Shown: positions 35,121 to 60,112 of the stretch, piece by piece
Layout: each line of letters opens with the position of its first letter
How positions within the stretch are numbered: position 1 is the first letter of the stretch
Virus record (IMG/VR): IMGVR_UViG_3300014204_007706
Span: 7,584 to 71,583 of that record
Strand: one strand, 5' to 3'
Source: a virus
Lineage: Duplodnaviria; Caudoviricetes
Length of the DNA: 64,000 nt
The notes under the pieces: model-generated
The model's database searches: none
What the model saw: the letters and a program-made list of their open reading frames with translations, nothing else
What the model was told of the DNA's origin: nothing
Made by a program: the position numbers and the translations under genes

Positions 35121-35195
35121 TCCCGCGTAGTTTATGTGGTAAAATGCATCCTTGGTAAGGATGAGAATCGGATTCAAACGCCGACGTGGGATCCA
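35121..35195 (+). tRNA. tRNA-Thr(GGT), atypical T-arm
   Basis: TCCCGCG/CGTGGGA; CATCC-TTGGTAA-GGATG; A53-G61 mismatch. Confidence 0.8.
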
Positions 35196-35200
35196 TAAGG

Positions 35201-35275
35201 GCCGCTTTGGTGTATGGAGTAACACGCGACTTTCGTAAAGTCGAGAACCGGATGCAAACGCCGGCAGCGGCTCCA
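35201..35275 (+). tRNA. tRNA-Thr(CGT), atypical T-arm
   Basis: CGACT-TTCGTAA-AGTCG; T-loop TGCAAAC; CCA. Confidence 0.78.
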
Positions 35276-35290
35276 ATATAAATTTACACG

Positions 35291-35330
35291 TGTATATAAG
35301 TTATAGTCACGTGACTATAAGTTATATACA
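35291..35330. repeat. 40-bp near-perfect loopless palindrome
   Basis: TGTATATAA-G-TTATAGTCACGTGACTATAA-G-TTATATACA. Confidence 0.85.
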
Positions 35331-35336
35331 GCAGAT

Positions 35337-35412
35337 TCCGGCGTATCTCAATTAGTAGAGAACCTGCCTTGTAAGCAGGGGGTTGTCGGTGCAAGTCCGA
35401 CCGCCGGATCCA
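35337..35412 (+). tRNA. tRNA-Thr(TGT)
   Basis: TCCGGCG/CGCCGGA; CCTGC-CTTGTAA-GCAGG; T-loop TGCAAGT. Confidence 0.88.
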
Positions 35413-35431
35413 AAATTTGAAAGGGGAATAT

Positions 35432-35596
35432 ATGACGCAGATTAAAACGAAAGTGGACGTGAAGGGATTTTACACAAAGGTTGTAATTCCAAAAGGTACC
35501 GTTCTTGACGTAAAGGAAAACCACGTTACAAGGTTCCTGGTGGAGTTTAAGAACAAGTACTGGTTTATTGATAAGCACCAAGCAGCAAAAATATAA
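35432..35596 (+). CDS. Small hypothetical protein (54 aa, not in ORF track)
   Basis: AAAGGGG RBS; MTQIKTKVDVKGFYTKVVIPKG...QAAKI. Confidence 0.55.
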   Translation: MTQIKTKVDVKGFYTKVVIPKGTVLDVKENHVTRFLVEFKNKYWFIDKHQAAKI

Positions 35597-35599
35597 GGT

Positions 35600-35676
35600 A
35601 GCGGGGTATAGCAGTGGTCTAGCTTTTTGGGCCCATACCCCAAAGGTCGCTGGTTCGAGTCCAGCCCCCGCCACCA
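35600..35676 (+). tRNA. Initiator tRNA-fMet(CAT)
   Basis: A1:C72 mismatch, three G-C pairs closing the anticodon stem (TTGGG/CCCAA), C33. Confidence 0.88.
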
Positions 35677-35701
35677 AATTTCTTTTGGTACCCATCTGTA
35701 A

Positions 35702-35717
35702 TTGTCGTATAATATAC
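35702..35717 (+). promoter_or_regulatory. Phage promoter-like motif TTGTCGTATAATATAC
   Basis: 21-bp identity (TTGTCGTATAATATACATGAG) with 40594. Confidence 0.7.
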
Positions 35718-35747
35718 ATGAGAACATCTTATTGAAAGGAGATACTC

Positions 35748-36311
35748 ATGACCCCATCAGAAATAGTAAATAGCTTAAATGTGTGGCACCCAGCATATGG
35801 GAAGTTAAAATTGCGGGGTGGTGGTACAGACCTCGGATATTTTGAATTTACCTTGGAGTCCGATCCGGACAAAAAAGTAAAGATCTACACACAGGATTTT
35901 GATAAGCTTACCAAAGAAAAACCTACTAACGACACCGCTGGAATGAAGTTTGACGGCGGAAAACTCCGCTTTGACCTCATACCCATGGAAGCTCTACAGG
36001 AAGAAATGAAAGTTCTTACCCACGGAGCGAATAAGTATGCCCCGAATAACTGGAAGCACGTTAAGGGCCGTATATGGCGTTATGTCGGCGCGGCCGGCCG
36101 GCATCTTATGACCTGGTTTATGGCTTACCTCGCATGGTGGGTTACAAAGGATGAAAAGTACCGCCTTCGTGGTAAAACAATAGATGACCTTTCAACGCTG
36201 GACTTCGATACAGGCATAAGCCATATGGCACATCTGGCATGTTGCGCACATTTTCTAACAGAGTGTGAACGGCACCCGGGAGACGACGAAATGGAAGGTT
36301 ACCAAGAATGA
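35748..36311 (+). CDS. dATP/dGTP diphosphohydrolase-domain protein (DUF5664-like)
   Basis: GMKFDGGKLRFDLIP...HGANKYAPNNW...AAGRHL...SHMAHLACC. Confidence 0.8.
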   Translation: MTPSEIVNSLNVWHPAYGKLKLRGGGTDLGYFEFTLESDPDKKVKIYTQDFDKLTKEKPTNDTAGMKFDGGKLRFDLIPMEALQEEMKVLTHGANKYAPNNWKHVKGRIWRYVGAAGRHLMTWFMAYLAWWVTKDEKYRLRGKTIDDLSTLDFDTGISHMAHLACCAHFLTECERHPGDDEMEGYQE

Positions 36312-36646
36312 GCCAAAAGAAGTGGAATAAATACGCTAGAGTATATTATCATAAACACAAAGCGGAGATAGCGGTCCGCCGAGCGGCGCGGTACTTGAAA
36401 GACTATGGTGAGCAAGCAGCGGCCAGGGAATTAATTCGCAAAGAGGTGTATGCTGTAGCAAAGGAGTTAAATAAAAAGCTAAAGGCGCTTCAAAAGCAGT
36501 ACGTCAAGGATAAGAAAGGCGCCTGGCAGACAGTTACGTTAGATGAACTTGGAGCCAGGAAAGATTACCTGGAAACAGTGTATGAGAACGGAAAGCTTGT
36601 TAAAGAGTATACATTTGATGAGGTAAGGAAGAACGCTGAAATATAG
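36308..36646 (+). CDS. Hypothetical protein with a NAMPT/NadV-like C-terminal remnant
   Basis: Ends DYLETVYENGKLVKEYTFDEVRKNAEI. Confidence 0.55.
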   Translation: MSQKKWNKYARVYYHKHKAEIAVRRAARYLKDYGEQAAARELIRKEVYAVAKELNKKLKALQKQYVKDKKGAWQTVTLDELGARKDYLETVYENGKLVKEYTFDEVRKNAEI

Positions 36647-36734
36647 TAGTTCGCTGGCCCCGGGTCCGTGCTGCTGAACCCCATTAGCGCGTGTCGAGCG
36701 GGCCCGGGGGCAACTACTTGAAAGGAGCAATAAA

Positions 36735-37130
36735 ATGAATGACATGAGGATGGGTTTAGACGTGCATGGAGTGATAGACAAAATGCCGGAATTCTTTTCG
36801 GCTATGTCAGAAGCAATGGTTAATTATGGCTTCCAGGTGCATATAATTACGGGGCACGCGTGGACCAAAGCGTTTGTTAAGGAACTTGAAGAACTGGGTT
36901 TCACAGAAGGACTTAACTATACACACCACTTTTCTGTTACAGACTACTATAGGGAAGAACCGGCAGCTAAGGTCAGGTTTGATGAAGATGGCAACCCCTG
37001 GATGGACAAAGAGATGTGGGACCGGGCTAAAGCTAAGTACTGCCTTGATAATGATATTGAGTTGCACATAGATGACTCTGACGCGTATGGTAAGTACTTC
37101 AAAACTCCATATGCCAGATTGACGAGGTGA
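36735..37130 (+). CDS. HAD-superfamily phosphatase-like protein
   Basis: MGLDVHGVID (motif I), IITG, LHIDDS (motif IV). Confidence 0.7.
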   Translation: MNDMRMGLDVHGVIDKMPEFFSAMSEAMVNYGFQVHIITGHAWTKAFVKELEELGFTEGLNYTHHFSVTDYYREEPAAKVRFDEDGNPWMDKEMWDRAKAKYCLDNDIELHIDDSDAYGKYFKTPYARLTR

Positions 37131-37133
37131 CGC

Positions 37134-37346
37134 ATGGAACCGATAGAAAAATCAGAAGCTTTACGCGCCGTAATAGCCAGATTGCCCATGGTTGAGTTTA
37201 CTCCGGGTTCGAACTTTAGGGAATTATTTGAAATATGTTATGAGAAATATACTTTGGATAATAGCCGAAGTTTTATGTTTTACTGGTTAGATGTTGAAGT
37301 CATGCTGATTGCCGGCGGAAAAATAGATCTAACTGTGTGGAGGTGA
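37134..37346 (+). CDS. Hypothetical protein
   Basis: 70-aa ORF with GAGGTG RBS. Confidence 0.55.
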   Translation: MEPIEKSEALRAVIARLPMVEFTPGSNFRELFEICYEKYTLDNSRSFMFYWLDVEVMLIAGGKIDLTVWR

Positions 37347-37349
37347 TCC

Positions 37350-37598
37350 ATGGGCAAAAAAGAAAGTTATACATGTGATATATGTGGAAAGCCTTGTACT
37401 TTAGACGACCACATAGATGACCTTCAGGTAATATTTACGACTGAACAGACAGAGGGACGCTCAGTTGAACCACACTTATGCAGCGTAGACCTATACGTGT
37501 GTGACGCATGTAAAGAGCATCTATTGGAAGGAAACTATCTGTTTGCATCCGGAGCCCAGGGACATAATACCTACCACTTCCCTAAGAAAAAGAAATGA
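37350..37598 (+). CDS. Small Zn-finger hypothetical protein
   Basis: CDICG and CDAC; GAGGTG RBS. Confidence 0.6.
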   Translation: MGKKESYTCDICGKPCTLDDHIDDLQVIFTTEQTEGRSVEPHLCSVDLYVCDACKEHLLEGNYLFASGAQGHNTYHFPKKKK

Positions 37599-37605
37599 GG
37601 TAGAC

Positions 37606-37866
37606 ATGCTTGACGGCGTTGAGGTTCTGGGAGGCATTGCCGCGGTACTTACTACCATTGAGGCAATACCACAAGTTATTAAATCTATACGTACGCGTAG
37701 TACCCGGGATATCTCTTTAGGATCCATTATGGTGGTTATATCCGGATTACTCTGCTGGACTGCCTATGGGGTAATAAAGAAAGACCTATGGATTGTTCTC
37801 TCTACAGGAATTGCCACGTTATTTTACATAACTTTACTTGTTGTGAAACTGGCATTTGAGAAATAA
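37606..37866 (+). CDS. SemiSWEET/PQ-loop (MtN3) membrane transporter
   Basis: Three hydrophobic helices, IPQVIKSIRTRSTRDIS, CWTAYG; start moved to ATG 37606. Confidence 0.85.
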   Translation: MLDGVEVLGGIAAVLTTIEAIPQVIKSIRTRSTRDISLGSIMVVISGLLCWTAYGVIKKDLWIVLSTGIATLFYITLLVVKLAFEK

Positions 37867-37871
37867 ACCCC

Positions 37872-37900
37872 TTGACAAATTACAGCCTTTCTGTTATAGT
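37872..37900 (+). promoter_or_regulatory. Sigma-70-type promoter
   Basis: TTGACA-17nt-TATAGT just upstream of tRNA-Leu. Confidence 0.75.
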
Positions 37901-37909
37901 ATGTCATAC

Positions 37910-37994
37910 GCGAGTATGGCGTAATTCGCAGCCGCGCCAGACTTAGGATCTGGTCCCGCAAGGGGTGGGGGTTCAAGTCCCTCTACTCGCACCA
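37910..37994 (+). tRNA. tRNA-Leu(TAG)
   Basis: CCAGA-CTTAGGA-TCTGG, long variable arm, CCA. Confidence 0.92.
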
Positions 37995-38480
37995 TAGGGC
38001 TGTAGTCATGGGAGCCCACAATCCCGTGTCCGTGCACCGGCCTACGATAAGCCGGCTGGATTTATAGATCTTGGGCCTTCTTAGAAAGCCGACTGCGCAA
38101 CAGCTGGGTGCTTTCGGTGGCAACCGAAAGGTTTATGGGTAGCAGAGTATAGGGTGGTCACTTTTAGGAGCCCTCAATGAACACCAACAGCCCTAAGCAA
38201 TGGCAAGGACCGTCCTATAGGCGTCCCTTGTGAAGCGTAGCCCCCACACTTGAGGTGGGCGTACTTATAAAAGGTTTCTTGCCGAAGGGCATCGGTTTCC
38301 GTTTTGTTCGTGGGACTAAGTCGACTCCTTGCAGGGACACGGGCAATGATAACCGAGAAATTATTGGCTTACGGGCTTAGCGGCCCGCGGACTGCGCAGC
38401 TAGGGCAAACTGCGAATTGCCAGAAAACAACCCGATTGAAATTATAAAGCGAGGGTGGTGTAAGATGAAGAACTTAATAA
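37995..38480 (+). ncRNA. Large structured non-coding RNA of unknown class
   Basis: No credible ORF; crossing 9-bp helices and many hairpins; 3' boundary approximate. Confidence 0.6.
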
Positions 38481-38617
38481 AGATCCATTCATGAATAGTA
38501 AACGTGGGCATTACATATATAAGTTAAAACAGTTGTATCATCATAGGCAGACTGTAAGAAAGCATGACTCTATATACTGGAGCCGCTTTGCAAACTGGAT
38601 TTGTGAGGAGAGGCCAA

Positions 38618-38941
38618 ATGGGCTGGAAAAACCTAAAGAAGTTTGATATTATAGGAATAACTAAGAGACGTATGCGGCAGTGTATGAAGGACAATCCGGA
38701 GTTGCGTTTACAAAATAATCCGCAAAGGATAGCAAAAAAGCGGAGGGTGTTGCCGTGGAATTCTCCAGGAACATATTCTGTGAGCGTTGACTTAGCTGCT
38801 GGTCCCATACAGGTGGGCTCCACTGTAGTGTTAACAAATACGGGTAAAGTAAAGGTGACACTAGATGCACATACAAAACCCTTTGGAATTGCGTTGTCCA
38901 CAAGTGATTCCAAAGGTACGGTCACAATCCAGGTCTATTAA
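38618..38941 (+). CDS. PQRIxK-motif protein with possible DUF2190-like (capsid cement) C-terminal domain
   Basis: GAGGAG RBS; NPQRIAK; GPIQVGSTVVL...PFGIAL...VTIQV beta-rich pattern. Confidence 0.55.
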   Translation: MGWKNLKKFDIIGITKRRMRQCMKDNPELRLQNNPQRIAKKRRVLPWNSPGTYSVSVDLAAGPIQVGSTVVLTNTGKVKVTLDAHTKPFGIALSTSDSKGTVTIQVY

Positions 38942-39332
38942 GAGCGAACGTATCAGGGTTCCCACATTTGAAATCGCGGCCAATCCGAAGATAAAGCTTA
39001 AGGATTTGGCGCTGCGGAAGTTTTCGATACCAGGAAGATGGAAGCACGAGTGTCGTAATCCACAAAGGATACCCAAGAAGCGCCGGCCAGGGTTCAGAAA
39101 TCAGCGGCCATATAGTCCTTGGTTAGACCAGAAAGCAGGAAAGCTTATATCAGATAGGACGCTTGCGCAGGAAATGGGACTAGATTATGACGCAGAAATG
39201 TTTAAACTATTGAAGGAGAATTCGCAAGATGGGAAAAGTAATACTATATGTGGGCAAGGAACAGAAAGTGCTACACGGAACGTGGAAGACAAAGACGGGA
39301 GCCCTGCTAACAGGGGAAGCTCTAAAAAGTGA
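38865..39332 (+). CDS. Basic protein with two PQxIPK motifs
   Basis: AAGGTGA RBS; CPQVIPK and NPQRIPK; 77-nt overlap with the previous ORF. Confidence 0.55.
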   Translation: MHIQNPLELRCPQVIPKVRSQSRSIKSERIRVPTFEIAANPKIKLKDLALRKFSIPGRWKHECRNPQRIPKKRRPGFRNQRPYSPWLDQKAGKLISDRTLAQEMGLDYDAEMFKLLKENSQDGKSNTICGQGTESATRNVEDKDGSPANRGSSKK

Positions 39333-39444
39333 AGTAATAAAACCGCACTTTGAGATAGAGAATGCTTGCTGGTGGATTCTGGGTGGCGCCGGTAGGGCAT
39401 TTTCAATGTTGCACAAAAAGAGCTTACGTAAAATTAAATTATAG
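39229..39444 (+). CDS. Hypothetical protein
   Basis: 71-aa ORF whose TAG ends on G1 of tRNA-Leu(CAA); overlaps previous ORF. Confidence 0.4.
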   Translation: MGKVILYVGKEQKVLHGTWKTKTGALLTGEALKSEVIKPHFEIENACWWILGGAGRAFSMLHKKSLRKIKL

Positions 39445-39528
39445 CGAGTGTGGTGGAATTGGCAGACACAGTGGTCTCAAAAGCCACAGGGGCAACCCAT
39501 GGGGGTTCAAGTCCCTCCACTCGCACCA
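39444..39528 (+). tRNA. tRNA-Leu(CAA)
   Basis: GTGGT-CTCAAAA-GCCAC, long variable arm, CCA. Confidence 0.92.
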
Positions 39529-39541
39529 AAAAGGAGTTAAG

Positions 39542-40102
39542 ATGTTTTCTGAAATATCAAGAAACAAAAAGACAGACTTTATTTATAACTCAAACTTAAT
39601 TGAAGAAATAGGGTTTGACAAAAAAGAATATAAAGACTGGGACTCATCAAGCTACCCGGAAATATCCGGGCATGCTATGGCGACAGACTACATGTTACAG
39701 AACTGTAGTACACAACTAAGTGAATATACCATTTTGGTTATGCATGGCATGCTTACACGTGGCTTGGTGCCTAGTAAATATCGTGGCGCATATAGAGATT
39801 GTATGGTATATATTGGCGGTCATGAAGGTCTGCCTCCTGTAGGTATAAAGCCAGCGATGTCACAGCTTATACGACATGCTGCTGTAGCAAAAACTGAACA
39901 GGACTGCTGGAATATACACCACGAGTTCGAGGTCATTCATCCGTTTATTGACGGTAATGGCAGGACCGGAAGGTTAATACTTAACTGGATGCTTTTGCAT
40001 AATAAGCGTCCGTTTAAGATCATAGATATCAAAGATAGATTTACGTACTATGACCAGATAGAGGAATATCGGCGCGAGCAACTGCGCCGGAAGTATGAAT
40101 AG
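39542..40102 (+). CDS. Fic/Doc-domain protein
   Basis: Canonical HPFIDGNGRTGR; FIYNSNLIE; start moved to ATG 39542 (AAGGAG RBS). Confidence 0.9.
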   Translation: MFSEISRNKKTDFIYNSNLIEEIGFDKKEYKDWDSSSYPEISGHAMATDYMLQNCSTQLSEYTILVMHGMLTRGLVPSKYRGAYRDCMVYIGGHEGLPPVGIKPAMSQLIRHAAVAKTEQDCWNIHHEFEVIHPFIDGNGRTGRLILNWMLLHNKRPFKIIDIKDRFTYYDQIEEYRREQLRRKYE

Positions 40103-40187
40103 CGAGTGTGACGTAATGGTAGCCGTACAGGACTTAAAATCCTGTGGGGGAAACCTCGTGTGGGTTCAAGTCCCTCCACTCGCACCA
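40102..40187 (+). tRNA. tRNA-Leu(TAA)
   Basis: CAGGA-CTTAAAA-TCCTG, long variable arm, CCA. Confidence 0.92.
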
Positions 40188-40201
40188 AAAAGGAGAACCT
40201 T

Positions 40202-40480
40202 ATGGCAGCGAAAGATTCAGTGCTAGTAAGGCTTATTTTTACCGACCCTAAGTACGCGCCAGAACCTCAGGGTATCGAGAACATAAGCCGATTATTTAAT
40301 GAAATTTTTAAGGACGGCGGAATACTTGTCATTCCGGAGCATATTACAGTAGAATGGGTAAAGGAACGTACAAAGGAAGCACTACTGGCTAGACAGGCCG
40401 CAGGGCTGACTTTGGACATGGAAATACTCAATGCGGTAAAAGCTGTAGAAATACAGCATATTCGCGTGGATTTTGAGTAG
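40202..40480 (+). CDS. Hypothetical protein
   Basis: Start moved to ATG 40202 after AAAGGAG. Confidence 0.6.
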   Translation: MAAKDSVLVRLIFTDPKYAPEPQGIENISRLFNEIFKDGGILVIPEHITVEWVKERTKEALLARQAAGLTLDMEILNAVKAVEIQHIRVDFE

Positions 40481-40501
40481 AGCTCTCTAAGAAGGCGTAG
40501 C

Positions 40502-40577
40502 GGGTTGGTGGTCTAATGGTTATGATGCAGGTCTCCAAAACCTTGCGGTGGTGGTTCAATTCCATCCCGGCCCGCCA
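40502..40577 (+). tRNA. tRNA-Trp(CCA)
   Basis: Anticodon loop CTCCAAA, G73, CCA. Confidence 0.85.
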
Positions 40578-40593
40578 AAAAAAATGCTTACTT

Positions 40594-40609
40594 TTGTCGT
40601 ATAATATAC
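40594..40609 (+). promoter_or_regulatory. Phage promoter-like motif TTGTCGTATAATATAC upstream of groES/EL
   Basis: Identical to copies at 35702 and 18544 (minus strand). Confidence 0.7.
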
Positions 40610-40639
40610 ATGAGGAAATAAATCATCTTTTGAAAGGAG

Positions 40640-42570
<1,931 letters not shown>

Positions 42571-42586
42571 CATTCGGAGGTAGCCT

Positions 42587-43660
42587 ATGCAGTTATTACT
42601 ACAACAAGAGTCAGAGATATCTCTGCCTCATATGGAAAATTTCGCCATCGTTTTATGTGGTGGGGGTGGCGCCGGTCGTTGGCAAGCTGGAGTTTTGGCG
42701 GCTTTGGCTCAACAAGGCGTCATAGAACGCGCCCGCGTAATATCTGGAACGTCCGTGGGTGGGATTAATACAGGAATTTTTGGTTTATACGGATTGACAC
42801 AGGGCGCAACTTCCTCTTTAAATCCCTGTCCTACTCCAAGATGGCATCAAGCTGTAGACGTATGGGAGTCAATAACCAAAAATTCTGATGGCTATAAAGG
42901 TGACCTTACGAGCCTTCCTGGACAGATAGGGTCGGGAGTAGGCCTTCTTGCAGGTAGTGATTGTCTTTTAAACCCGGACCCTTTGCACCAAAAAATAGAT
43001 AATATTTTTGGATCACTGGATATGGAAGCAGTGTCTGAAATTTCCGGTGTGCACTTAATGATCTCTGCAATGGACTTAAATTCACAGCTTGAGGAATTTT
43101 ACACCAGCTTTGGACCAGATCGCAGCATGAAAATATCCGAAGCTATAAAAAGAACCTCGGCGCTGCCTGTCGTTTTTAAATCACAACCAGGTAAAGATTC
43201 GGCGCACCCTAACGCCGTACACTGGCATGTTGACGGCGGTTTGGCCGCTAATAATCCATTTTTAGCCTTGAATACCTATAACAGAAATTTTCCAGGGGCA
43301 CAGGTAAAGAAAGTTATTATTGTATACTGCTACCCTGATATAACCACGGATATTGGTATAAGTACGTCAACAGCTAATGATAACACAGAGTACAGAATGG
43401 CACGCGACGTGGCTTTACGGTCTTTGGGGGCAGTTATGAATGGGCAAGAACAGATGGCTGAGTCGGTAATTATAGACAAAGTTAAAGAAGCCGGCTGGGA
43501 CGTGTTAGCTTTGTACCCAAAAAATGCTCCCTGTGATGCTATAAATTTTTCCAAGACCATATTGTTGCAGGAAGGTTACGACTATGCTGTTGCCGGCAAG
43601 GGTTACTCTTACAGAGATGACGCGACTATAAACATTATTGATTTTTTAAAGCGTACATGA
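42587..43660 (+). CDS. Patatin-like phospholipase
   Basis: GGGAGR (GxGxxG), GTSVG (GxSxG), VDGG. Confidence 0.88.
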   Translation: MQLLLQQESEISLPHMENFAIVLCGGGGAGRWQAGVLAALAQQGVIERARVISGTSVGGINTGIFGLYGLTQGATSSLNPCPTPRWHQAVDVWESITKNSDGYKGDLTSLPGQIGSGVGLLAGSDCLLNPDPLHQKIDNIFGSLDMEAVSEISGVHLMISAMDLNSQLEEFYTSFGPDRSMKISEAIKRTSALPVVFKSQPGKDSAHPNAVHWHVDGGLAANNPFLALNTYNRNFPGAQVKKVIIVYCYPDITTDIGISTSTANDNTEYRMARDVALRSLGAVMNGQEQMAESVIIDKVKEAGWDVLALYPKNAPCDAINFSKTILLQEGYDYAVAGKGYSYRDDATINIIDFLKRT

Positions 43661-50755: not shown

Positions 50756-50757
50756 GC

Positions 50758-52584: not shown

Positions 52585-52613
52585 TTGACAAACAGAGGTG
52601 TTTGTTGTACAAT
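52585..52613 (+). promoter_or_regulatory. Sigma-70-type promoter for the membrane/ABC operon
   Basis: TTGACA-17nt-TACAAT. Confidence 0.75.
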
Positions 52614-52652
52614 GTAGTCGTAATAAAAAAAGAATGAAAGTGGTGACGCTCA

Positions 52653-52865
52653 GTGGGAAAACTCATATCAGCCATGCTTACAGCCTTACTAATTGCCGTC
52701 GGTATTTCTTTAGCCTGTCTAGTTTACGCCCTTCCTATTATGTTGCTATGGAACTGGCTCATGCCCAAAATCTTCGGTCTCATTACTATTAATTTCTGGG
52801 AAGCCCTTGGTCTTTGTTGCTTAGCAGCGTTTTTATTCAAAAGTTCAAATACAAAATCCGAATGA
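52653..52865 (+). CDS. Small membrane protein
   Basis: Two hydrophobic segments; PIMLLWNWLMPKIFGLITINFWEALGL. Confidence 0.65.
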   Translation: MGKLISAMLTALLIAVGISLACLVYALPIMLLWNWLMPKIFGLITINFWEALGLCCLAAFLFKSSNTKSE

Positions 52866-52879
52866 AAGGAGGTATACTT

Positions 52880-53473
52880 ATGGCAGAGAAAAAGAAATTC
52901 AGCATCGCAGCACTGTTTATCAAGGAAGACGAAGCACCGAGAACACCTTCTACAAAAACAGAGGAAGTTCCAGCGGAAGCCACAGAAACACAGGCAGTAT
53001 CGGGCCAGGTTAGCGAGGAAGTTGCGTCAACACTCAAAGGAATCCTGGCAGAGAACAAGCTTGACGGATTTGAATATCTTCAGTTTCGGGAGACGCTCAA
53101 TAATATTGATATAGAAGATGAGAGCGTAAAGTTCAAATCAGCTATGGCAGCGGTTACAGCTATGAAGGGGAATCCGGAGGTTCTGCTTACGTCAGCGAAG
53201 TCTTACATTATGGTACTAAAGGACCAGTCCAAAGAGTATTCGAAACTTATGGCTGGCAAGCTTGCAGACGTAGCAGAAAAAGAAGGGGAAGCCGCCTCAA
53301 TGCAGGCACAGATCGAAAAGCTGCAGGCCAGCAAAGCTTCATTGGAAGCCGGCGCAGCAAAGACAAGAAAGAATATAGCGGCCAAGCAGGCCACGTTTGA
53401 CGCGACGTGTGCATCACTGGTTGATGAAATAGCAGCAGATATAGAAAAGATCAAAAAATTCAAGAAGGTTTAA
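52880..53473 (+). CDS. Coiled-coil protein of the ABC/OmpA module
   Basis: Start moved to ATG 52880 (AAAGGAGG); C-terminal coiled coil. Confidence 0.7.
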   Translation: MAEKKKFSIAALFIKEDEAPRTPSTKTEEVPAEATETQAVSGQVSEEVASTLKGILAENKLDGFEYLQFRETLNNIDIEDESVKFKSAMAAVTAMKGNPEVLLTSAKSYIMVLKDQSKEYSKLMAGKLADVAEKEGEAASMQAQIEKLQASKASLEAGAAKTRKNIAAKQATFDATCASLVDEIAADIEKIKKFKKV

Positions 53474-53482
53474 GGAGGCAAC

Positions 53483-54502
53483 ATGGGAACTGACTTAATG
53501 GGAGCACCTGTTAACAAACCGAAAAACTTCTGGGAAAAGCCGGAAGGAACCACAGCGACCGTGGTTAACGCAGTAGCCCTCGGTGGCGGCGCAATTGCGC
53601 TGGTTACATTCGCACCGGTGCTGCTTACACTTATGACAACACTTTTCGGGGCAGTATTGCTCGCGGGATTGTCCGCGGGAGCCATATTTCTGGCTATGCA
53701 GAAGAACTTTCGCAACCTTATGTGGTATGGCTATCAGAGTGCCATGAGGGGAGTCACAAGCCTGTTTGTAACTATTGATCCAATAGGTATTCTTAAGAAT
53801 TACGTAAAGTATCTTAAGGAGAATTTGGAGAAGATGGACAGCCAGGTAAGCGGACTCGGCGGACAGATGGAAGAAATGAAGCGTACAATGGACTCGAATC
53901 AGTCAAGTATGACAATGAGCCTGAAGTTAGCGTCAAAGGCCAAAGAAAAGGGCGACCAGATAAATACCACGCTTAACGCGAGGAAAGCCGGAAGACTGGA
54001 AAGCTCCAATATTACTCTAAGAACCCTCTATACAAAGATGGAAGTCATGTACCGCGTGTTGTCAAAGATGCGTGATAATGCCAGCATCCTTATAGAGGAC
54101 ACAGAGAGCGAGATTGAAACACGGGAAGCCGAGTATAATGCGATGAAAGCCGCACATGGAGCTATGAAGTCTGCCATGTCCATCATCAATGGTGACCCGG
54201 ACCAGAGGGCAATGTTCGAAATGTCTATGGAACAAACTGCAGACTCTATCAGTCAGAAACTTGGCGATATGCAGCATTTCATGGAGATCAGTCAGAAGGT
54301 TATGGACTCAGTTGACCTAACCAATGGTGTTATGACTGACGACGGCTTGAAAATGCTTGAGGAATGGGAAAACAAGTCCACCTCAACTCTCTTAGGCGAT
54401 GACAAGAAATCTGCGCTCGATGCAGCATACGATGACAAGCAGGTGCTGGACGTAAAGAAAGGTAAGAAAGCAAAAGGAAGCGATCTCGAAAAACTAATGT
54501 AA
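53483..54502 (+). CDS. Membrane-anchored long coiled-coil protein (PspA/IM30-like, inferred)
   Basis: Two N-terminal TM helices, DPIGILKNYV, long Met-rich coiled coil. Confidence 0.6.
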   Translation: MGTDLMGAPVNKPKNFWEKPEGTTATVVNAVALGGGAIALVTFAPVLLTLMTTLFGAVLLAGLSAGAIFLAMQKNFRNLMWYGYQSAMRGVTSLFVTIDPIGILKNYVKYLKENLEKMDSQVSGLGGQMEEMKRTMDSNQSSMTMSLKLASKAKEKGDQINTTLNARKAGRLESSNITLRTLYTKMEVMYRVLSKMRDNASILIEDTESEIETREAEYNAMKAAHGAMKSAMSIINGDPDQRAMFEMSMEQTADSISQKLGDMQHFMEISQKVMDSVDLTNGVMTDDGLKMLEEWENKSTSTLLGDDKKSALDAAYDDKQVLDVKKGKKAKGSDLEKLM

Positions 54503-54527
54503 ACATTCTCTTGAAAGGAGAAAAACT

Positions 54528-56075
54528 ATGAACAAACTGACAGGTTTTGCGAAAGGGTTGATAGCGGTAGTTATCGGTGCGGTCATCTTCGGCGGATGGA
54601 TGTATGCAAAGAAATCCGGCTTGATGGACAAGATCGCTCCGGTAAGCAAGGAAATGGCTTCAGCAGGTGCTGTAGTTAAGACGTCCGGGGGCGGCGGTAA
54701 GCTGAACAGGCCCATCCGCGTGGGTATTAACACGTGGAGCGGATTTGCCGGCATTGTGTACTGGAACAAAGGCATGAAGGCAAACACGGAGTCAAAGTTT
54801 TACACGAATGACGGGCTCCAGGTAGAGATACTCCAGATAGACGACATTCAGTCAGGTAAGAACTCCTGGATAGCGAACAAGATTGACGTATGGTATTGCA
54901 CGGTAGATTCCTTCCCGGTTGATGTTGGCGGGATAAAGTCGCAGCAGCCTAAGATTATTCTTCAGACAGACTGGTCACGCGGCGGAGACGCTATAGTAGT
55001 AGCGCCCGGAATTAACACGGTAGCAGACTTAAAAGGTAAGACTGTGGCATGCGCAGAAGGTTCACCTTCACACACTTTCTTACTGTGGATGCTTAAGGCG
55101 AATGAGATGCTTATGACAGATATAAAGCTTATTAAGGTAGCGAATGGTATTGATGCGGCAGCAGCTTTCAAAGCCGGCAAAGTAGACGCGGCAGTATGCT
55201 GGTCACCGGATGACCTGGATTGCGTAGACGCCATAAAAGGCGCGAAGGTTCTAATTAACACGAAAAAGGCGTCGAACATCATAGCGGACGCTATTTATGC
55301 AAAGAAATCCTTTATCGAGAATTATCCGAAAAGCGTTGAGGCCCTGGTAAAGGGATGGCTTGAAGCGAACGCGGCTATCAATGGTTCAGAGTCGGCAAAG
55401 ACAGAAGCGACCAAACTTTTCGCCACGAACTTTAATGTGCCGGAAGTGGTTGTGGACGTAAGGAACGCCAGGCTTTGTACATACGGGGACAACATGAATT
55501 TCTTTGAGATGAACCCGGCCTACGCAGGTGTAACCGGCAGGAGCTTGTATGAGGAAATGTCAAACGAATATGGCAACATCGGACTTGCAGGAACGGACCT
55601 TCCTTACTGGAGAGAGATCGCAGACGTGTCCATACTTAGGGGACTATCCAGTGTTCTGACCGGCCCGGAGCAGTCAGCTGAAGGCAAAGCAACATTTGCG
55701 CCGGTTGCCAACGCAGACTCCCTGCAGACGATTTCGTCAAAGAAACTTTCAATATCGTTTGAGTCCGGCTCGGCCATACTGGACCAGAACGCTCAGTATG
55801 TCATCCAGATGGGCTTTGGCAGCTTTGTTAAGTCCTTTGCCCGGTCCAGGATTAGGATTGAAGGAAACACAGACAGCGTAGGCGGCGATGAAGTAAACCA
55901 GCCGCTTTCAGAAAGACGCGCCCAGGCTGTGGCCAACTTTCTGATTAAGACCTACAAACTCGATTCGAACAGGATCCTTGTAGTGGGCAACGGATCGAAA
56001 AAGCCGGTAGCTTCGAACGATACTTCGGATGGACGCGCAAAGAACAGAAGGACAGACTTTGAGATAGTAGAATAA
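54528..56075 (+). CDS. NMT1/THI5-type ABC substrate-binding protein fused to an OmpA-like peptidoglycan-binding domain
   Basis: N-terminal TM; DWSRGGDAIV, LKGKTVA; C-terminal ISFESGSA...IEGNTDSVG...LSERRAQAV...NRRTDF. Confidence 0.88.
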   Translation: MNKLTGFAKGLIAVVIGAVIFGGWMYAKKSGLMDKIAPVSKEMASAGAVVKTSGGGGKLNRPIRVGINTWSGFAGIVYWNKGMKANTESKFYTNDGLQVEILQIDDIQSGKNSWIANKIDVWYCTVDSFPVDVGGIKSQQPKIILQTDWSRGGDAIVVAPGINTVADLKGKTVACAEGSPSHTFLLWMLKANEMLMTDIKLIKVANGIDAAAAFKAGKVDAAVCWSPDDLDCVDAIKGAKVLINTKKASNIIADAIYAKKSFIENYPKSVEALVKGWLEANAAINGSESAKTEATKLFATNFNVPEVVVDVRNARLCTYGDNMNFFEMNPAYAGVTGRSLYEEMSNEYGNIGLAGTDLPYWREIADVSILRGLSSVLTGPEQSAEGKATFAPVANADSLQTISSKKLSISFESGSAILDQNAQYVIQMGFGSFVKSFARSRIRIEGNTDSVGGDEVNQPLSERRAQAVANFLIKTYKLDSNRILVVGNGSKKPVASNDTSDGRAKNRRTDFEIVE

Positions 56076-56086
56076 CATAACCGCTG

Positions 56087-56118
56087 TAGGGGGTGGGCAG
56101 AGCGTCGCCCACCTCCTA
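56087..56118 (+). other. GC-rich intercistronic hairpin (likely mRNA stabiliser, no U-tract)
   Basis: TAGGGGGTGGGC/GCCCACCTCCTA 12-bp stem between binding-protein and permease genes. Confidence 0.6.
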
Positions 56119-56139
56119 TGGCATATAAGGAGGATATGC

Positions 56140-56937
56140 ATGAATAAATTTTTTGCCTTACGCGGAGAATTACCCAAGAAAACCGCAACCATTATATTTT
56201 ACGCCGGGCTGGCCACGCTTGTGTTCTTGTGGTGGGCTATTACGGCGTTCACAAAGATCAGCCCTACACTGCTACCGTCACCGGCTAAGGTGCTGGCTTC
56301 ATTCAATGAGCTTCATTTCCAAGACGCATTGGTTCGCAATACCATATATTCTGTAAAACTTAATCTTCTTGGTTATATGGAAGCCATTGCAGTTGCGGTC
56401 CCTATAGGATTCCTTATTGGACTCTTTCCATTATTCAGGGATATGTTCCGCCGGCACCTGGACGCTATCAGGTTTATACCGCTGACCGCGGTGACCGGGC
56501 TCTTCATAGCGTGGTTCGGTATCGAGGACAACATGAAAGTACAGTTTCTGGCATTTGGTATCATTGTATACCTGCTGCCTGTAGTTGTGCAAAGGATCCA
56601 GGAAGTTGATAACGTCTATGCTCAAACCGTGCAGACACTCTCAACCAAACAGTGGCATATAATTAAAAAGGTGTTCATTCCGGCGGTACTGTCAAAGGTG
56701 TACGAGGACATCCGCGTTCTTGTGGCCATATCCTGGACGTACATTATCGTGGCTGAAATGGTAAACAAGTCCGGTGGTATCGGTGCTATGGCGTACCTCG
56801 CCGCCAGGCAAAGCCGCGTGGATAAGGTATTCGCGCTGCTCGTGGTGATAATACTTATCGGAATAATACAGGACAGACTGTTCATGCTGCTTGACAGGGT
56901 ACTCTTTCCGTACAAGTATAAAAAGGAGAAAGTATGA
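56140..56937 (+). CDS. NitT/TauT-family ABC permease
   Basis: LLPSPAKV, IRFIPLTA, VFIPAVL, SWTYIIVAEM; multiple TM helices. Confidence 0.9.
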   Translation: MNKFFALRGELPKKTATIIFYAGLATLVFLWWAITAFTKISPTLLPSPAKVLASFNELHFQDALVRNTIYSVKLNLLGYMEAIAVAVPIGFLIGLFPLFRDMFRRHLDAIRFIPLTAVTGLFIAWFGIEDNMKVQFLAFGIIVYLLPVVVQRIQEVDNVYAQTVQTLSTKQWHIIKKVFIPAVLSKVYEDIRVLVAISWTYIIVAEMVNKSGGIGAMAYLAARQSRVDKVFALLVVIILIGIIQDRLFMLLDRVLFPYKYKKEKV

Positions 56938-57308
56938 ATAAAATACTAATGGGTTACGCTATTTTTGTTTTTGTTTTTCTTAGCTTTGCTCTTGTTGTAA
57001 ACGCAGGCGTACCGGGCCTGTCAGAGTTCGGTGACATCTCGGGCCAGGAAAAAGCCGCCATTAATGCATTTGCAACAAAGACTGACGCAAGCGTAGCGAA
57101 TTTGCAAAAACGGGTATTGGCGCTGGAAATGTGGGCGAACATGAAGGACCAGGACCCGCGGGTTCAGATACAACAGCTGCAGGCGCAGGTAAAAGAATTA
57201 CAGGCCATCGTAGCGCCTTTGCAGGCAGAGAATGAGCAGCTTAAGAAAGAAAAGACTATCCTATTACAGACGCTGAAGGTTTACCAGACAGCGCCGAAGG
57301 AGAAGTAA
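56934..57308 (+). CDS. Exported/membrane-anchored coiled-coil protein
   Basis: N-terminal signal/TM then heptad-rich segment. Confidence 0.6.
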   Translation: MNKILMGYAIFVFVFLSFALVVNAGVPGLSEFGDISGQEKAAINAFATKTDASVANLQKRVLALEMWANMKDQDPRVQIQQLQAQVKELQAIVAPLQAENEQLKKEKTILLQTLKVYQTAPKEK

Positions 57309-57309
57309 T

Positions 57310-58140
57310 ATGGAAAACGTAAAATTTGATAATGACAAAGACGTACCCGATATAATTGAGCTGCAAAAGATCAACCAGTCCTACGACGGTGGTAAGACCT
57401 TTATCATAAAGGACCTCGATTTGCTCCTGGAGAATGAGCCTGGAGAGAACCAGGTTATTTCAATCTTGGGCGCGTCCGGATGCGGAAAATCTACGCTCTT
57501 GCGCTACGTGAGCGGTCTGCAGGTTCCTACAAGCGGCGAAGTAAAGCTCTACGGCAAGCCTATCGACTATAAGACAATAGTCGGCATGGTCTTCCAGAAG
57601 TATTCCAGTCTGCCCTGGCTCACTGTTAAAGAGAACGTAGCTTTGGGTCTGGAGTTCCAGGGAGTTTCAGAGTCAGAACGTAACCAGAGGGCTTTAGAGA
57701 TGGTAGACCTTGTGGGCCTCACCGGTCATGAGAACAAATATGCAGAGTATCCTACACTCTCTGGCGGACAGCTGCAGCGTGTAGCTATCGCGAGAAGCTT
57801 GCTAGCGAACCCGAAGATCCTGCTTATGGATGAACCTTTCGGAGCCCTGGACATCAACACCAGGTTGAACATGCAGGAACTGCTTATGTCCATCTTAAAG
57901 AAAGTTAAGGACATGGCGATTATCTTTGTGACGCATGACATCACCGAGGCTGTGTACATTTCGGATGATATTTACATGATGTCGGCCAATCCCGGGCAGA
58001 TCGTCGAGCATGTGAAGGTACCATTCGAGGGCCGGTCACACTTACTCAAAAGGGATATGAAGTTCGTTAAACTGGTATACGAGATTGAGGATAAAATGAA
58101 AGAGATTAGCGCCGCGTCAGCTAAAAGGAAGGTGGCATAA
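57310..58140 (+). CDS. NitT/TauT-family ABC ATPase
   Basis: GASGCGKST, LSGGQLQR, LLMDEPFGALD, FVTHD. Confidence 0.95.
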   Translation: MENVKFDNDKDVPDIIELQKINQSYDGGKTFIIKDLDLLLENEPGENQVISILGASGCGKSTLLRYVSGLQVPTSGEVKLYGKPIDYKTIVGMVFQKYSSLPWLTVKENVALGLEFQGVSESERNQRALEMVDLVGLTGHENKYAEYPTLSGGQLQRVAIARSLLANPKILLMDEPFGALDINTRLNMQELLMSILKKVKDMAIIFVTHDITEAVYISDDIYMMSANPGQIVEHVKVPFEGRSHLLKRDMKFVKLVYEIEDKMKEISAASAKRKVA

Positions 58141-58141: not shown

Positions 58142-58624
58142 ATGCAAACAAAATCAGAACTGTTTGGATTTGTAATAGAATTTAATGAGCAGGCAAATCA
58201 GTGGGTTATTACTGATGTTGGCGCTGAGGTATACAGAGACGTAGATCGTAGTAAATGTCTTGCTTGGGTTAAGCGTAATAAGAATAGAAATGTTGAGAAG
58301 ATCTCGGCGTATAGCAGCCACTTTAGTTTTGGTGAGATTACATCCGTTGCAGATGAAAACATAAATTATCCCCACGTGTGGTTTACGATAATAGATAAAG
58401 AGTATGGGAATAGCCGGCGTAAGGAACGCCTTGAATCTCTGTATCCAGCTACGGAGGAAAACAAAGATATAGTGACACGGAGATGTGAACTGAATAAACA
58501 GATTGAAGCGATAGAAAATCAGCGTGATAAGTTGCAGCTCAAAGGTGAGTTCATTTTGAAAGATGGTAGAGTTATGGTGAAACCTAAGAAAGCCCTCAAA
58601 GAGAAAAAGTCCCAGGAGGTATAA
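58142..58624 (+). CDS. Hypothetical protein
   Basis: 160-aa ORF in operon. Confidence 0.6.
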   Translation: MQTKSELFGFVIEFNEQANQWVITDVGAEVYRDVDRSKCLAWVKRNKNRNVEKISAYSSHFSFGEITSVADENINYPHVWFTIIDKEYGNSRRKERLESLYPATEENKDIVTRRCELNKQIEAIENQRDKLQLKGEFILKDGRVMVKPKKALKEKKSQEV

Positions 58625-58625
58625 C

Positions 58626-59186
58626 ATGAAATTTTTCTACATGTATGGAAATATCGGGACACACAAATCTACGTACGCCCGCTACATAGCGGATAGGCAG
58701 GGTACGTTGATTCTGGACGACGACGAGCTGTATCATGTACTTTGCAATAAATCCTGGAAGTTTTATTATAATAAAGGCATTCAGGAGGTAGTTCTGCAAA
58801 TGTTTCAGGGGGCCGTGTCCAAGCTGCAGGAGAATGCTGTAAAAGACGCAGTGGTGGCTACAGCATCCCTGGATCCGTTTATGTTTTCTCTAGACATAAA
58901 ACCCCCAAACCAGTTATTTATAATAGTTACGGGTAATGGAACCAGGGAATTCAGCCTGGAAAACCGCAGGAAAAACCACCGGGGAGTATCCCAGGAAGAA
59001 TGGGCTATGGTGTACGACCAGGAAGCCGCAAAGATTCGGACCGGCTTGGCCAGTCTAAAAGAAACACTCGAAGATAAGACCTGGCTTGCTGAAACGGTAC
59101 TCTGGCTTACGGACCCCTTGGATGAAGAATTAAGTAAGAAAGAGATTGACAAATTCCTGGATAACGTATATAATGTACAAAACTGA
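58626..59186 (+). CDS. P-loop (AAA_33-like) kinase
   Basis: MYGNIGTHKSTYARY degenerate Walker A, ILDDDEL; GGAGG RBS. Confidence 0.6.
   Translation: MKFFYMYGNIGTHKSTYARYIADRQGTLILDDDELYHVLCNKSWKFYYNKGIQEVVLQMFQGAVSKLQENAVKDAVVATASLDPFMFSLDIKPPNQLFIIVTGNGTREFSLENRRKNHRGVSQEEWAMVYDQEAAKIRTGLASLKETLEDKTWLAETVLWLTDPLDEELSKKEIDKFLDNVYNVQN
59146..59174 (+). promoter_or_regulatory. Consensus sigma-70 promoter
   Basis: TTGACA-17nt-TATAAT. Confidence 0.8.
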
Positions 59187-59201
59187 AAAAGGAGGTGCCG
59201 T

Positions 59202-59501
59202 ATGAAAACACTTGTCGAGACGTTAAGGACTAAGACAAAGGTTGGCTACATCGAGCATCCTTTTTCGTATGTATCTGTTGACGGACTTAAGAAGCTTACT
59301 TTCGAGCAGGCTTACGCTGAGTTCATTGACGTGCTTTACGGAGAAGGCAAAGCTGTTGTACACAATGGCAAGGCTATCATGCTGTTTAAGAAGAAAGCTT
59401 TCGTTGGTACACTCGATGCGACCGATCCGCTGGTCATCCCACATGATGGCTGGAAAAAGGTAGAAAACTTAAGGCACGAGTTCTTACTGCTTATTAAGTA
59501 A
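59202..59501 (+). CDS. Hypothetical protein
   Basis: 99-aa ORF, AAGGAGGTG RBS. Confidence 0.65.
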   Translation: MKTLVETLRTKTKVGYIEHPFSYVSVDGLKKLTFEQAYAEFIDVLYGEGKAVVHNGKAIMLFKKKAFVGTLDATDPLVIPHDGWKKVENLRHEFLLLIK

Positions 59502-59510
59502 ACTTTAGGT

Positions 59511-59587
59511 AGGGCCGTAGCTCAGTTGATTAGAGCGCCCGCCTGTCACGTGGGAGGCCGCGGGTTTGAGCCCCGTCGGCCCTGCCA
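59511..59587 (+). tRNA. tRNA-Asp(GTC)
   Basis: AGGGCCG/CGGCCCT, CCCGC-CTGTCAC-GTGGG, G73, CCA. Confidence 0.92.
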
Positions 59588-59603
59588 AAGAAAAAGGAAG
59601 GAG

Positions 59604-59873
59604 ATGATTCTAATGGGTAAGCTGATAGAAAACATGACATTAGCCGAACTGGAAAAAGCAAATCCTTCCAACGATGACTTAGAAGCATCTGGACGCAGAG
59701 TTATGGTCAAGGTCTTTGCTTCAAGAAGTAAATACATGAACGCCAAGGATATCAAGGCTTTAATAGCCGCCGGCGTTGGTACGCGCTCAGATCTTGAAGA
59801 AGCGTCAGACATGGAGAACATTATACCCGTGATTGACGCAATAATAGAAAGCAAGCTTAAAGGAAACGCATGA
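59604..59873 (+). CDS. Hypothetical protein
   Basis: Start moved out of the tRNA (ATG 59604 or 59613). Confidence 0.6.
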   Translation: MILMGKLIENMTLAELEKANPSNDDLEASGRRVMVKVFASRSKYMNAKDIKALIAAGVGTRSDLEEASDMENIIPVIDAIIESKLKGNA

Positions 59874-59881
59874 ACATTAGT

Positions 59882-59956
59882 GCGAGTGTAGTTCAATGGT
59901 CAGAACAGACGCTTGATAAGCGTCAGACAGTGGTTCAATTCCACTCTCTCGTACCA
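59882..59956 (+). tRNA. tRNA-Ile(GAT)
   Basis: GACGC-TTGATAA-GCGTC, A73, CCA. Confidence 0.9.
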
Positions 59957-59960
59957 TTTT

Positions 59961-60036
59961 GGGCATGTAACTCATCAGCTAGAGTACCTCACTTTTAATG
60001 AGGGAGTAGAGAGGGCGGCACTCTCCATGCCTACCA
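59961..60036 (+). tRNA. tRNA-Lys(TTT), non-canonical T-loop GGCGGCA
   Basis: GGGCATG/CATGCCT; CCTCA-CTTTTAA-TGAGG; GAGAG/CTCTC T-stem. Confidence 0.82.
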
Positions 60037-60037
60037 A

Positions 60038-60112
60038 GGATCTGTAGCTCAACAGTGGAGCAAGGCACTCATAATGCCGAGGTCGCAGGGGCAGCACCTG
60101 CCGGATCCACCA
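60038..60112 (+). tRNA. tRNA-Met/Ile2(CAT), non-canonical T-loop GGCAGCA
   Basis: GGATCTG/CGGATCC; loop CTCATAA; GCAGG/CCTGC T-stem. Confidence 0.8.

Follow-up and report, generated by a model that had tools for sequence, protein, structure and literature searches.

Six of the 18 transfer RNA (tRNA) genes in a phage contig of the IMG/VR collection, IMGVR_UViG_3300014204_007706, carry G55 in the T-loop together with a D-loop that admits A18, and very probably encode working tRNAs with an alternative elbow. We analyzed 64 kb of this 71.6-kb virus contig, hereafter the window; the contig itself is estimated to represent about half a genome. In a standard tRNA, G18 of the D-loop slides between T-loop bases 57 and 58 and hydrogen-bonds with U55, present as pseudouridine, and T54 pairs with A58. 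An initial annotation of this DNA had described a systematic rewiring of these contacts, which overstates a change seen in a third of the set, but the T-loops and D-loops that it quoted were all recovered in place by direct reading, ARAGORN and a cloverleaf scan.

Three co-varying elbow designs in one phage tRNA set

The 18 genes lie between positions 34096 and 61690 of the window, all on the plus strand; each has an encoded CCA end, as initially annotated. The calls combine ARAGORN, Rfam, direct reading and a loop-agnostic cloverleaf scan, in which four stems were required and loop sequence was ignored. G55 is present in tRNA-Thr(CGU), tRNA-Thr(UGU), tRNA-Glu(UUC), tRNA-Ala(UGC), tRNA-Lys(UUU) and a tRNA with a CAU anticodon that is either elongator Met or Ile2 (the CAU tRNA); the other 12 have U55. 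An A18-G19 register is possible in every G55 tRNA and in no U55 tRNA (6/6 versus 0/12; exact p = 1/18564, ~5e-5). Eleven of the 12 U55 tRNAs have G18, ten of them as G18-G19 and tRNA-Asp as G18-A19, and tRNA-Leu(UAG) has C18. The canonical combination of G18-G19, U55-C56 and T54-A58 occurs in none of the six G55 tRNAs, all of which keep the outer G19-C56 pair.

These six tRNAs fall into three T-loop designs of two tRNAs each, and the designs coincide with the nature of the 54-58 pair. Design 1 (U54 G55 C56 A57 A58) has a U-A pair and is found in tRNA-Thr(CGU) at 35201-35275, with T-loop TGCAAAC and D-loop ATGGAGTA read as A18-G19, and in tRNA-Thr(UGU) at 35337-35412, with T-loop TGCAAGT and D-loop AATTAGTA, in which A18-G19 is unambiguous. 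Design 2 (A54 G55 C56 G57 U58 U59 A60) has an A-U pair and is found in tRNA-Glu(UUC) at 49320-49393 (T-loop AGCGTTA, D-loop AAAAGCA) and tRNA-Ala(UGC) at 50178-50256 (T-loop AGCGTTA, D-loop GCATAGGGT, which allows A18-G19). Design 3 (G54 G55 C56 R57 G58 C59 A60), with a G-G pair, belongs to tRNA-Lys(UUU) at 59961-60036 (T-loop GGCGGCA, D-loop ATCAGCTA) and the CAU tRNA at 60038-60112 (T-loop GGCAGCA, D-loop AACAGTG). The earlier reports of A54/U58 in Glu and Ala, and of AG without GG in the D-loops of Lys, CAU, Glu and Thr-UGU, were both borne out. The D-loops of Thr-CGU and Ala can accommodate either AG or GG, and these tRNAs also fit A18-G19 despite the GG elsewhere in the loop. All six tRNAs are without U55 and four of them are also without U54.

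Two U55 tRNAs depart from the canonical elbow in other ways, which adds to the earlier observation. The tRNA-Asp(GUC) gene at 59511-59587 has both U55 and U56 (T-loop TTTGAGC) and a D-loop, AGTTGATTA, with G18-A19, such that its outer pair is changed from G19-C56 to A19-U56. The tRNA-Leu(UAG) gene at 37910-37994 has C18 in its D-loop, AATTCGCAG, with U55 unchanged. Relative to Leu-CAA and Leu-UAA of the same phage this change is uncompensated, and the T-arm is identical to that of Leu-CAA at 17/17 positions.

Features of functional tRNAs in the six G55 genes

Each of the six G55 genes forms a cloverleaf with stems of 7, 4, 5 and 5 base pairs (bp), an anticodon loop of seven nucleotides (nt) containing U33, and a discriminator base followed by CCA. 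Stem pairing is 19-21 of 21 throughout, no worse than in the canonical tRNAs of the same phage, and reaches 21/21 in Thr-UGU, Glu and Lys and 20/21 in CAU. The cloverleaf is the minimum-energy fold for five of the six, and for only about half of the canonical set. Relative to a gathering threshold of 29 bits for the Rfam tRNA family RF00005, Thr-UGU scores 63, CAU 46.6, Lys 45.2 and Glu 40.6 bits. Four of the six are detected by Rfam and one by default ARAGORN. Both programs miss Thr-CGU and Ala, which Rfam leaves unreported even at E values up to 10, and ARAGORN misfolds tRNA-Ala as 50186-50256.

Identity features and codon usage are consistent with a role in decoding. G3.U70 is present in tRNA-Ala, G-1 (with C73) in tRNA-His and C33 in the initiator tRNA, all as first described. 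The tRNA-Glu sequence has U11-A24, U13.G22 and a 4-nt variable loop, which we take to be identity elements for E. coli GluRS. Codon counts over 62 open reading frames (ORFs) of the window place ACA, GAA, GCA and AAA, all read by rewired tRNAs, at the top of their respective families. The commonest Ile codon of the phage in these ORFs is ATA, which suggests that the CAU tRNA, adjoining tRNA-Ile(GAU), is Ile2 rather than elongator Met. A promoter-like site, TTGACA-17-TATATT, ends 10 nt upstream of tRNA-Glu and scores 11/12; sites with the same score precede tRNA-Arg with the RNase P RNA gene, and tRNA-Leu(UAG), all of them being consensus matches only.

Recurrence of the designs in other phage tRNAs

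An exact search of IMG/VR with the T-arm of Thr-UGU returned 33 stretches, about two thirds of which represent tRNAs for other amino acids, Ile, Met and Lys among them, whose D-loops have A-G; no Thr ortholog was found among the 33. Several matches are not tRNAs and, judging from a GGUGnAAnUCC motif, may be T-loops of cobalamin riboswitches. For designs 2 and 3, the search patterns comprised only the T-loop, two flanking pairs and CCA. Design 2 gave at least 79 distinct matches in good cloverleaves, from at least 72 contigs and with at least 19 amino-acid identities, and design 3 gave at least 29 matches in at least 27 contigs. Among the matches listed, A18-G19 is allowed in 77 of 79 for design 2, with G18 allowed in only 4, and in 28 of 29 for design 3. 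The two designs also carry distinct D-loop signatures: in the matches listed, the base before A18 is A in 61/77 and U in 13/77 for design 2, and C in 21/28 and never A for design 3. Glu (A-AG), Lys and CAU (C-AG) of the window fit these signatures, and the U-AG of Ala represents the minority state.

A wider survey applied a cloverleaf-plus-CCA scan to 147 IMG/VR loci and yielded 1,171 distinct tRNAs, the D-loop never being part of the search pattern. These loci had been chosen for G55 T-loops, so that the frequencies of the classes cannot be read from the counts and the D-loop association alone is free of this bias. That association is nearly complete (Fisher p ~1e-198): U55-C56 occurs with G-G in 893/904, G55-C56 with A-G in 213/216 and with G-G in 9/216, and U55-U56 with G-A in 20/22. 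The G55 tRNAs of the survey represent all 20 amino acids and keep U33 in 209/216 cases. Mixed arrays, of which the window is an example, are the commonest kind, accounting for 72 of the 98 survey loci with five or more tRNAs. Overall, these comparisons point to three discrete designs with D-loop signatures of their own, plus an A19-U56 class, which are newly recognized here.

Individual features of the window's tRNAs have counterparts elsewhere. Two phage-like arrays, in L138 (GCA_043956535.1) and in a contig of a Cyclobacteriaceae assembly (L420; JALHRJ010000037.1), contain U56 T-loops (TTTGATT, TTTAAAT) with G-A in the D-loop, as in the window's tRNA-Asp. Canonical, G55 and A19-U56 tRNAs are mixed in L420, as in the window. 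The combination of G8 with G14 seen in the window's tRNA-Ala is also present in a few other design-2 tRNAs (L141, L171).

Single-copy cellular tRNAs with the A18-G55 elbow

We scanned one genome per prokaryote species for design 2, defined by D-loop AAAAGTA, T-loop AGCGTTA and CCA, and found it in 64 bacterial genome stretches versus about 2 expected by chance. At least 12 Pelagibacteraceae, many gut Alphaproteobacteria and a Rickettsiales assembly encode a solitary design-2 tRNA-Val(GAC) on large chromosomal contigs, and several Patescibacteria have a solitary tRNA-His of this design. Verrucomicrobiales assemblies contain large mixed arrays in which G55 tRNAs occur, and further design-2 matches lie in phage-like arrays assigned to the bins of other bacteria, L420 among them. 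Single-copy cellular genes of this kind, as found in SAR11, other Alphaproteobacteria and Patescibacteria, are newly recognized here.

The most informative cellular example is a 1.1-Mb Pelagibacteraceae genome (G010) with 31 tRNAs. Its only tRNA-Phe(GAA) is of the A18/G55 type (D-loop AGTAGTA, T-loop TGCGATT), its only tRNA-Val(GAC) follows design 2, and all its other tRNAs are canonical; both rewired genes reside on a 308-kb contig near the tRNAs of the ribosomal RNA (rRNA) operon. Among 48 Pelagibacteraceae (SAR11) genomes, 17 have a rewired and 31 a canonical version of the orthologous tRNA-Phe. The rewired orthologs comprise three sequence types with compensatory T-stem changes (GTTTG, GTTAG and GTAAG, each with a matching partner). 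As read from these genes, SAR11 tRNA-Phe provides strong evidence that a tRNA with the A18-G55 elbow works in normal translation alongside RNase P, synthetases, EF-Tu and ribosomes of the ordinary kind.

Searches of 61 Pelagibacteraceae genomes (G010-G070) detected the TruB catalytic domain (PF01509) in 20, and its distribution differs with the state of tRNA-Phe: 0/17 genomes with the rewired gene versus 19/31 with the canonical one (Fisher p = 2e-5). These states cluster phylogenetically, in a way that a single loss and one to three switches could explain, and the association amounts to no more than a lead. Loss of TruB as a precondition for rewiring was rejected, since a TruB-positive SAR11 genome (G047) carries a design-2 tRNA-Val. 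The independence from TrmA and TruB suggested in the initial annotation follows directly from sequence, in that the substrate bases U54 and U55 are absent, and may matter biologically.

Origin of the tRNA set in this phage

A complete 150-kb phage, L001 (IMGVR_UViG_3300005573_000004), is syntenic with positions 20400-49300 of the window at 40-70% protein identity. It has a single tRNA, Arg-ACG, which is the only tRNA common to both. The other tRNAs of the window, canonical and rewired alike, are not in L001, and neither are the RNase P RNA, a Fic gene and several small ORFs. On this comparison, the tRNAs, RNase P RNA and small ORFs are separate insertions in the lineage of the window, or losses in that of L001. 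A search of the phage collection for close relatives returned generic tRNA matches only, and relatives of the DNA polymerase are at most 31% identical. The GroEL search identified one true relative, again L001, which is without rewired tRNAs; distant GroEL relatives with large arrays, such as L011 with 26 tRNAs, are entirely canonical. No rewired tRNAs were found in the examined stretches of three contigs (L137-L139) related through an OmpA-fused binding protein.

Two pairs of neighboring genes bear on how the designs arose. The canonical tRNA-Thr(GGU) at 35121-35195, with loops ATGTGGTA and TTCAAAC, and the adjacent, rewired Thr-CGU share a rare A53.G61 mismatch, as had been noted initially, and have the same variable loop (AGAA) and the same loop end (AAAC). 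Their sequence identity is 69% (the mean of all pairs is 58%), and their T-arms agree at 14/17 positions. From these shared features, Thr-GGU and Thr-CGU are probably paralogues that record an in-place change of design in a single gene lineage. Lys and CAU, which are adjacent, 70% identical and of the same design, look like a pair of common origin.

Relation to other T-loops and to known tRNA variants

In the proposed mechanism, A18 with G55 would replace the inner elbow contact G18-U55 in the six phage tRNAs, and the tRNA-specific version of the T-loop (UUCRA with G18) would thereby be exchanged for a general one (UGCRA with A18); designs 2 and 3 would change the 54-58 pair besides. T-loops outside tRNA usually have G at position 2 and follow the consensus YGNRA, mostly as UGNAA; the base inserted between positions 4 and 5 is almost always adenine, with two hydrogen bonds to the sugar edge of the position-2 G, and a GGAAG T-loop is present in rRNA (bioRxiv 10.1101/2022.12.26.521914). 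The T-loops of flavin mononucleotide (FMN) and cobalamin riboswitches (YGNRA, intercalated A) share with the phage tRNAs a G at position 2 and an intercalating A, although riboswitch T-loops are not tRNAs and their receptor is the loop of another helix. The UGCAA of Thr-CGU and Thr-UGU fits YGNRA, whereas the GGCRG of Lys and CAU resembles only the GGAAG type of rRNA, and the AGCGU of Glu and Ala, with A at position 1 and U at position 5, falls outside the published consensus.

RNase P, the ribosomal L1 stalk and T-box RNAs stack on the flat face that the outer G19-C56 pair presents (PMC4810234). With this face kept, folding, processing, charging and decoding would be expected to proceed normally. 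The idea that the variants evade such elbow readers, put forward in the initial annotation for T-box RNAs and RNase P, finds no support because the 19-56 Watson-Crick pair is kept in all six and is present as A19-U56 in Asp. The bases U54, U55 and G18 are the substrates of TrmA, TruB and TrmH, respectively (PMC7912444). What rewiring takes away is U54, U55 and G18, sites read by these modification enzymes as well as by T-loop nucleases that cleave within UUC.

Relative to canonical bacterial and phage elongator tRNAs (RF00005), the six share the cloverleaf, the 7-bp acceptor stem, the 5-bp T-stem with a 7-nt loop, U33, an encoded CCA, standard identity elements, G19-C56 and clustering among phage genes. 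They differ in having A18-G55 for G18-U55 and, in four of six, an A-U or G-G combination at 54-58. Phages such as T5 encode tRNA copies that differ from host tRNAs at the site read by anticodon-loop nucleases; such escape changes lie in the anticodon loop, whereas those of the window lie in the elbow. Long accessory tRNA arrays (L-arrays) of bacteria are extra tRNA sets on mobile DNA. In contrast, the tRNAs of the window are scattered single insertions in a phage backbone.

Altered elbows have been described in two further settings. The non-proteinogenic tRNA-Gly of Staphylococcus is without G18-G19 and U55-C56, functions in cell-wall synthesis and binds EF-Tu weakly (PMC4574755). Its U18-U19 or C18-U19 has no compensating partner, whereas in the window's tRNAs A18 and G55 compensate one another, so the uncompensated loss of elbow contacts that marks the staphylococcal type is not found in the six; with the contact rebuilt, they look made for translation. 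The eukaryotic initiator tRNA resembles the window's tRNAs in having a base other than U at position 54 and a different 54-58 pair (A54-A58; PMC7912444), but it keeps U55 and G18, is a single tRNA species and belongs to another domain of life. We found no description of natural A18/G55 tRNAs in the literature searched (A18/G55, U55G, and phage elbow or T-loop variants), most subscription journals lying outside that search.

Functional tRNAs or decay products

Covariation, intact stems, identity elements, the codon match and recurrence in phage and in single-copy cellular tRNAs together give good support to the initial proposal that the variants are selected rather than decayed, and we hold with considerable confidence that the six G55 genes are working tRNAs. 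Several observations weigh on the other side. Thr-CGU is the weakest of the six, with A53.G61 and U7.C66 mismatches, a minimum-energy fold other than the cloverleaf and no Rfam match. Ala is individually uncertain: it has several non-standard core positions, G8 occurring with G14 alongside a 7-nt variable loop, and the final 19 nt of an HNH endonuclease ORF (49579-50196, plus strand), which lies between tRNA-Gln and tRNA-Ala, run into its 5' end. The uncompensated C18 of Leu-UAG indicates either that some elbow change is tolerated or that decay has set in. The geometry of A18-G55 is deduced from covariation and from analogy with other T-loops rather than from a solved structure, and the wider survey was selected in the manner described above. 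Expression and charging of the six tRNAs in this phage are likewise deduced: the two public runs with window sequence are DNA-type metagenomes, from landfill and groundwater, and no RNA run containing it is listed among public runs. The features of Thr-CGU, Ala and Leu-UAG, along with a tRNA 3' fragment at 60419-60506, would also suit a reading in which the odd loops are mutational damage in redundant phage copies. We consider such decaying pseudo-tRNAs very improbable, as the changes are paired and not scattered, four of the six combine 20-21 of 21 stem pairs with cloverleaf folds, and hundreds of unrelated contigs, as well as essential cellular tRNAs, have the same loop sequences. It is just as improbable that the six act outside translation, whether by donating amino acids to transferases, as decoys of host enzymes or in regulation. 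The staphylococcal tRNA-Gly sets a published bacterial precedent for a changed elbow coupled to a non-ribosomal job (PMC4574755), but the rewired tRNAs span five or six amino-acid identities here and all twenty elsewhere, match the preferred codons of the phage and almost always keep U33 in the survey, and the rewired tRNA-Phe of SAR11, being the sole one in its genome, must serve the ribosome.

For working tRNAs with an alternative elbow, the most likely benefit would be insensitivity to readers of U54 and U55, a suggestion that we offer tentatively; resistance to such readers and a near-neutral origin with spread by duplication and transfer appear about equally likely. A Schlafen nuclease associated with type III CRISPR acts on 28 E. 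coli tRNAs, which it cleaves mainly 5' of U55, and a mutation of either U54 or U55 alone prevents the cut (PMC13462974). Since this cut needs the very bases that are missing from the rewired tRNAs, and G55 tRNAs are common in phage tRNA arrays, the elbow might be kept as resistance to host immune nucleases or toxins that cut the T-loop UUC, and by analogy evasion of tRNA-targeting defences is plausible. As a claim of benefit placed on top of function, however, we think this rather unlikely. Only 6/18 tRNAs are rewired and they serve five or six amino acids, so translation would still be halted by a broad T-loop nuclease, although the contig is only about half a genome. Free-living bacteria also have the same designs in chromosomal tRNAs present as single copies, which phage counter-defence cannot account for. 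The alternative that A18-G55 and the 54-58 variants are structurally equivalent states, reached by occasional paired mutation and spread without specific benefit, is a serious possibility that we would still not favor outright. SAR11 tRNA-Phe orthologs exist in both states, Thr-GGU and Thr-CGU look like paralogues in two states, mixed arrays predominate among the larger survey loci, and the window's tRNAs are separate insertions relative to L001. However, cellular tRNAs hardly ever depart from U55 and G18, so that crossing between states must be rare; three discrete, coherent designs, each spread over many amino acids, suggest selection for the design itself; and the restriction of rewired SAR11 tRNA-Phe to genomes in which TruB was not found hints at a link to the modification machinery. 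In the broadest formulation, A18-G55 in its U-A, A-U and G-G versions of the 54-58 pair would be a second general-purpose elbow, serving all 20 amino acids and employed by many phages and by some cellular lineages, as in the sole tRNA-Phe of many SAR11 genomes; it would make a tRNA independent of or invisible to TrmA, TruB and T-loop-cutting nucleases, and phages would assemble mixed sets as counter-defence. Stated in full, this proposal is doubtful.

Other tRNAs and features of the window

The remaining tRNAs have canonical elbows. They are tRNA-Arg(ACG) at 34096-34171, tRNA-His(GUG) at 35041-35117, tRNA-Leu(CAA) at 39444-39528, tRNA-Leu(UAA) at 40102-40187, tRNA-Trp(CCA) at 40502-40577, tRNA-Ile(GAU) at 59882-59956, immediately upstream of the Lys and CAU pair, and tRNA-Gly(UCC) at 61616-61690, in addition to Thr-GGU. 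The initiator tRNA(CAU) at 35600-35676, whose elbow is canonical too, combines its C33 with an A1xC72 mismatch and three G-C pairs in the anticodon stem. The tRNA-Gln(UUG) gene at 49397-49480 is 84 nt long and has a canonical T-loop and GG, a weak D-stem and a 12-nt variable arm; this arm contains a small GAAA hairpin, which is unusual for a Gln tRNA. The 88-nt element at 60419-60506 (plus strand) has a canonical T-arm, a 3' acceptor strand and ACCA without a proper D-arm or anticodon arm, and is probably a tRNA 3' fragment by these features; it contains a promoter-like TTAGCA-18-TATAAT. Further tRNA-like pieces lie at 52046-52205 (plus strand), where an Rfam tRNA match of 29.9 bits at 52098-52166 is flanked by canonical T-arm-like hairpins and a stretch resembling the 5' half of tRNA-Glu.

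A bacterial type A RNase P RNA is encoded at 34211-34667 on the plus strand, between tRNA-Arg and tRNA-His, with a score of 84 bits (E = 4e-26) that falls under the Rfam threshold of 100. Its P3 carries a long insertion, its specificity domain is extended by 99 inserted nt, and it is without the P18 region. A transfer-messenger RNA (tmRNA) gene is located at 50829-51184. Phage-typical genes of the window include those for DNA polymerase, helicases, NrdD, GroEL and SbcCD, among others. A module at 52814-58140 (plus strand) consists of two unknown genes, an OmpA-fused substrate-binding protein, an ABC permease and an ATPase, and is common to three other large uncultured phage-like contigs (L137, L138 and L139) at 54-77% identity. 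Cellular homologs, judged from one gene, are mostly from Bacteroidota, which gives a weak hint as to the host. The contig originates from a landfill metagenome assembly, and its sequence occurs in a groundwater metagenome as well, at low depth; over 34000-53999, contigs from the landfill and groundwater runs are identical, with no informative variants inside tRNAs.

Significance

The positions replaced here, G18, U55 and T54-A58, are textbook invariants assumed by gene finders, modification maps and structural models. Their coherent, co-varying replacement, working in phages and in essential cellular tRNAs, would mean that a viable elbow can be built in more than one way. Phage tRNAs are under-counted by standard annotation, to judge from the one (ARAGORN) and four (Rfam) of six rewired genes that it detects here. 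The rewired tRNAs are natural test substrates for the roles of pseudouridine-55, m5U54 and Gm18, and the rewired elbow is a testable candidate for phage escape from T-loop-cutting immune nucleases. SAR11 tRNA-Phe makes the question testable in a cultivable, globally abundant organism.

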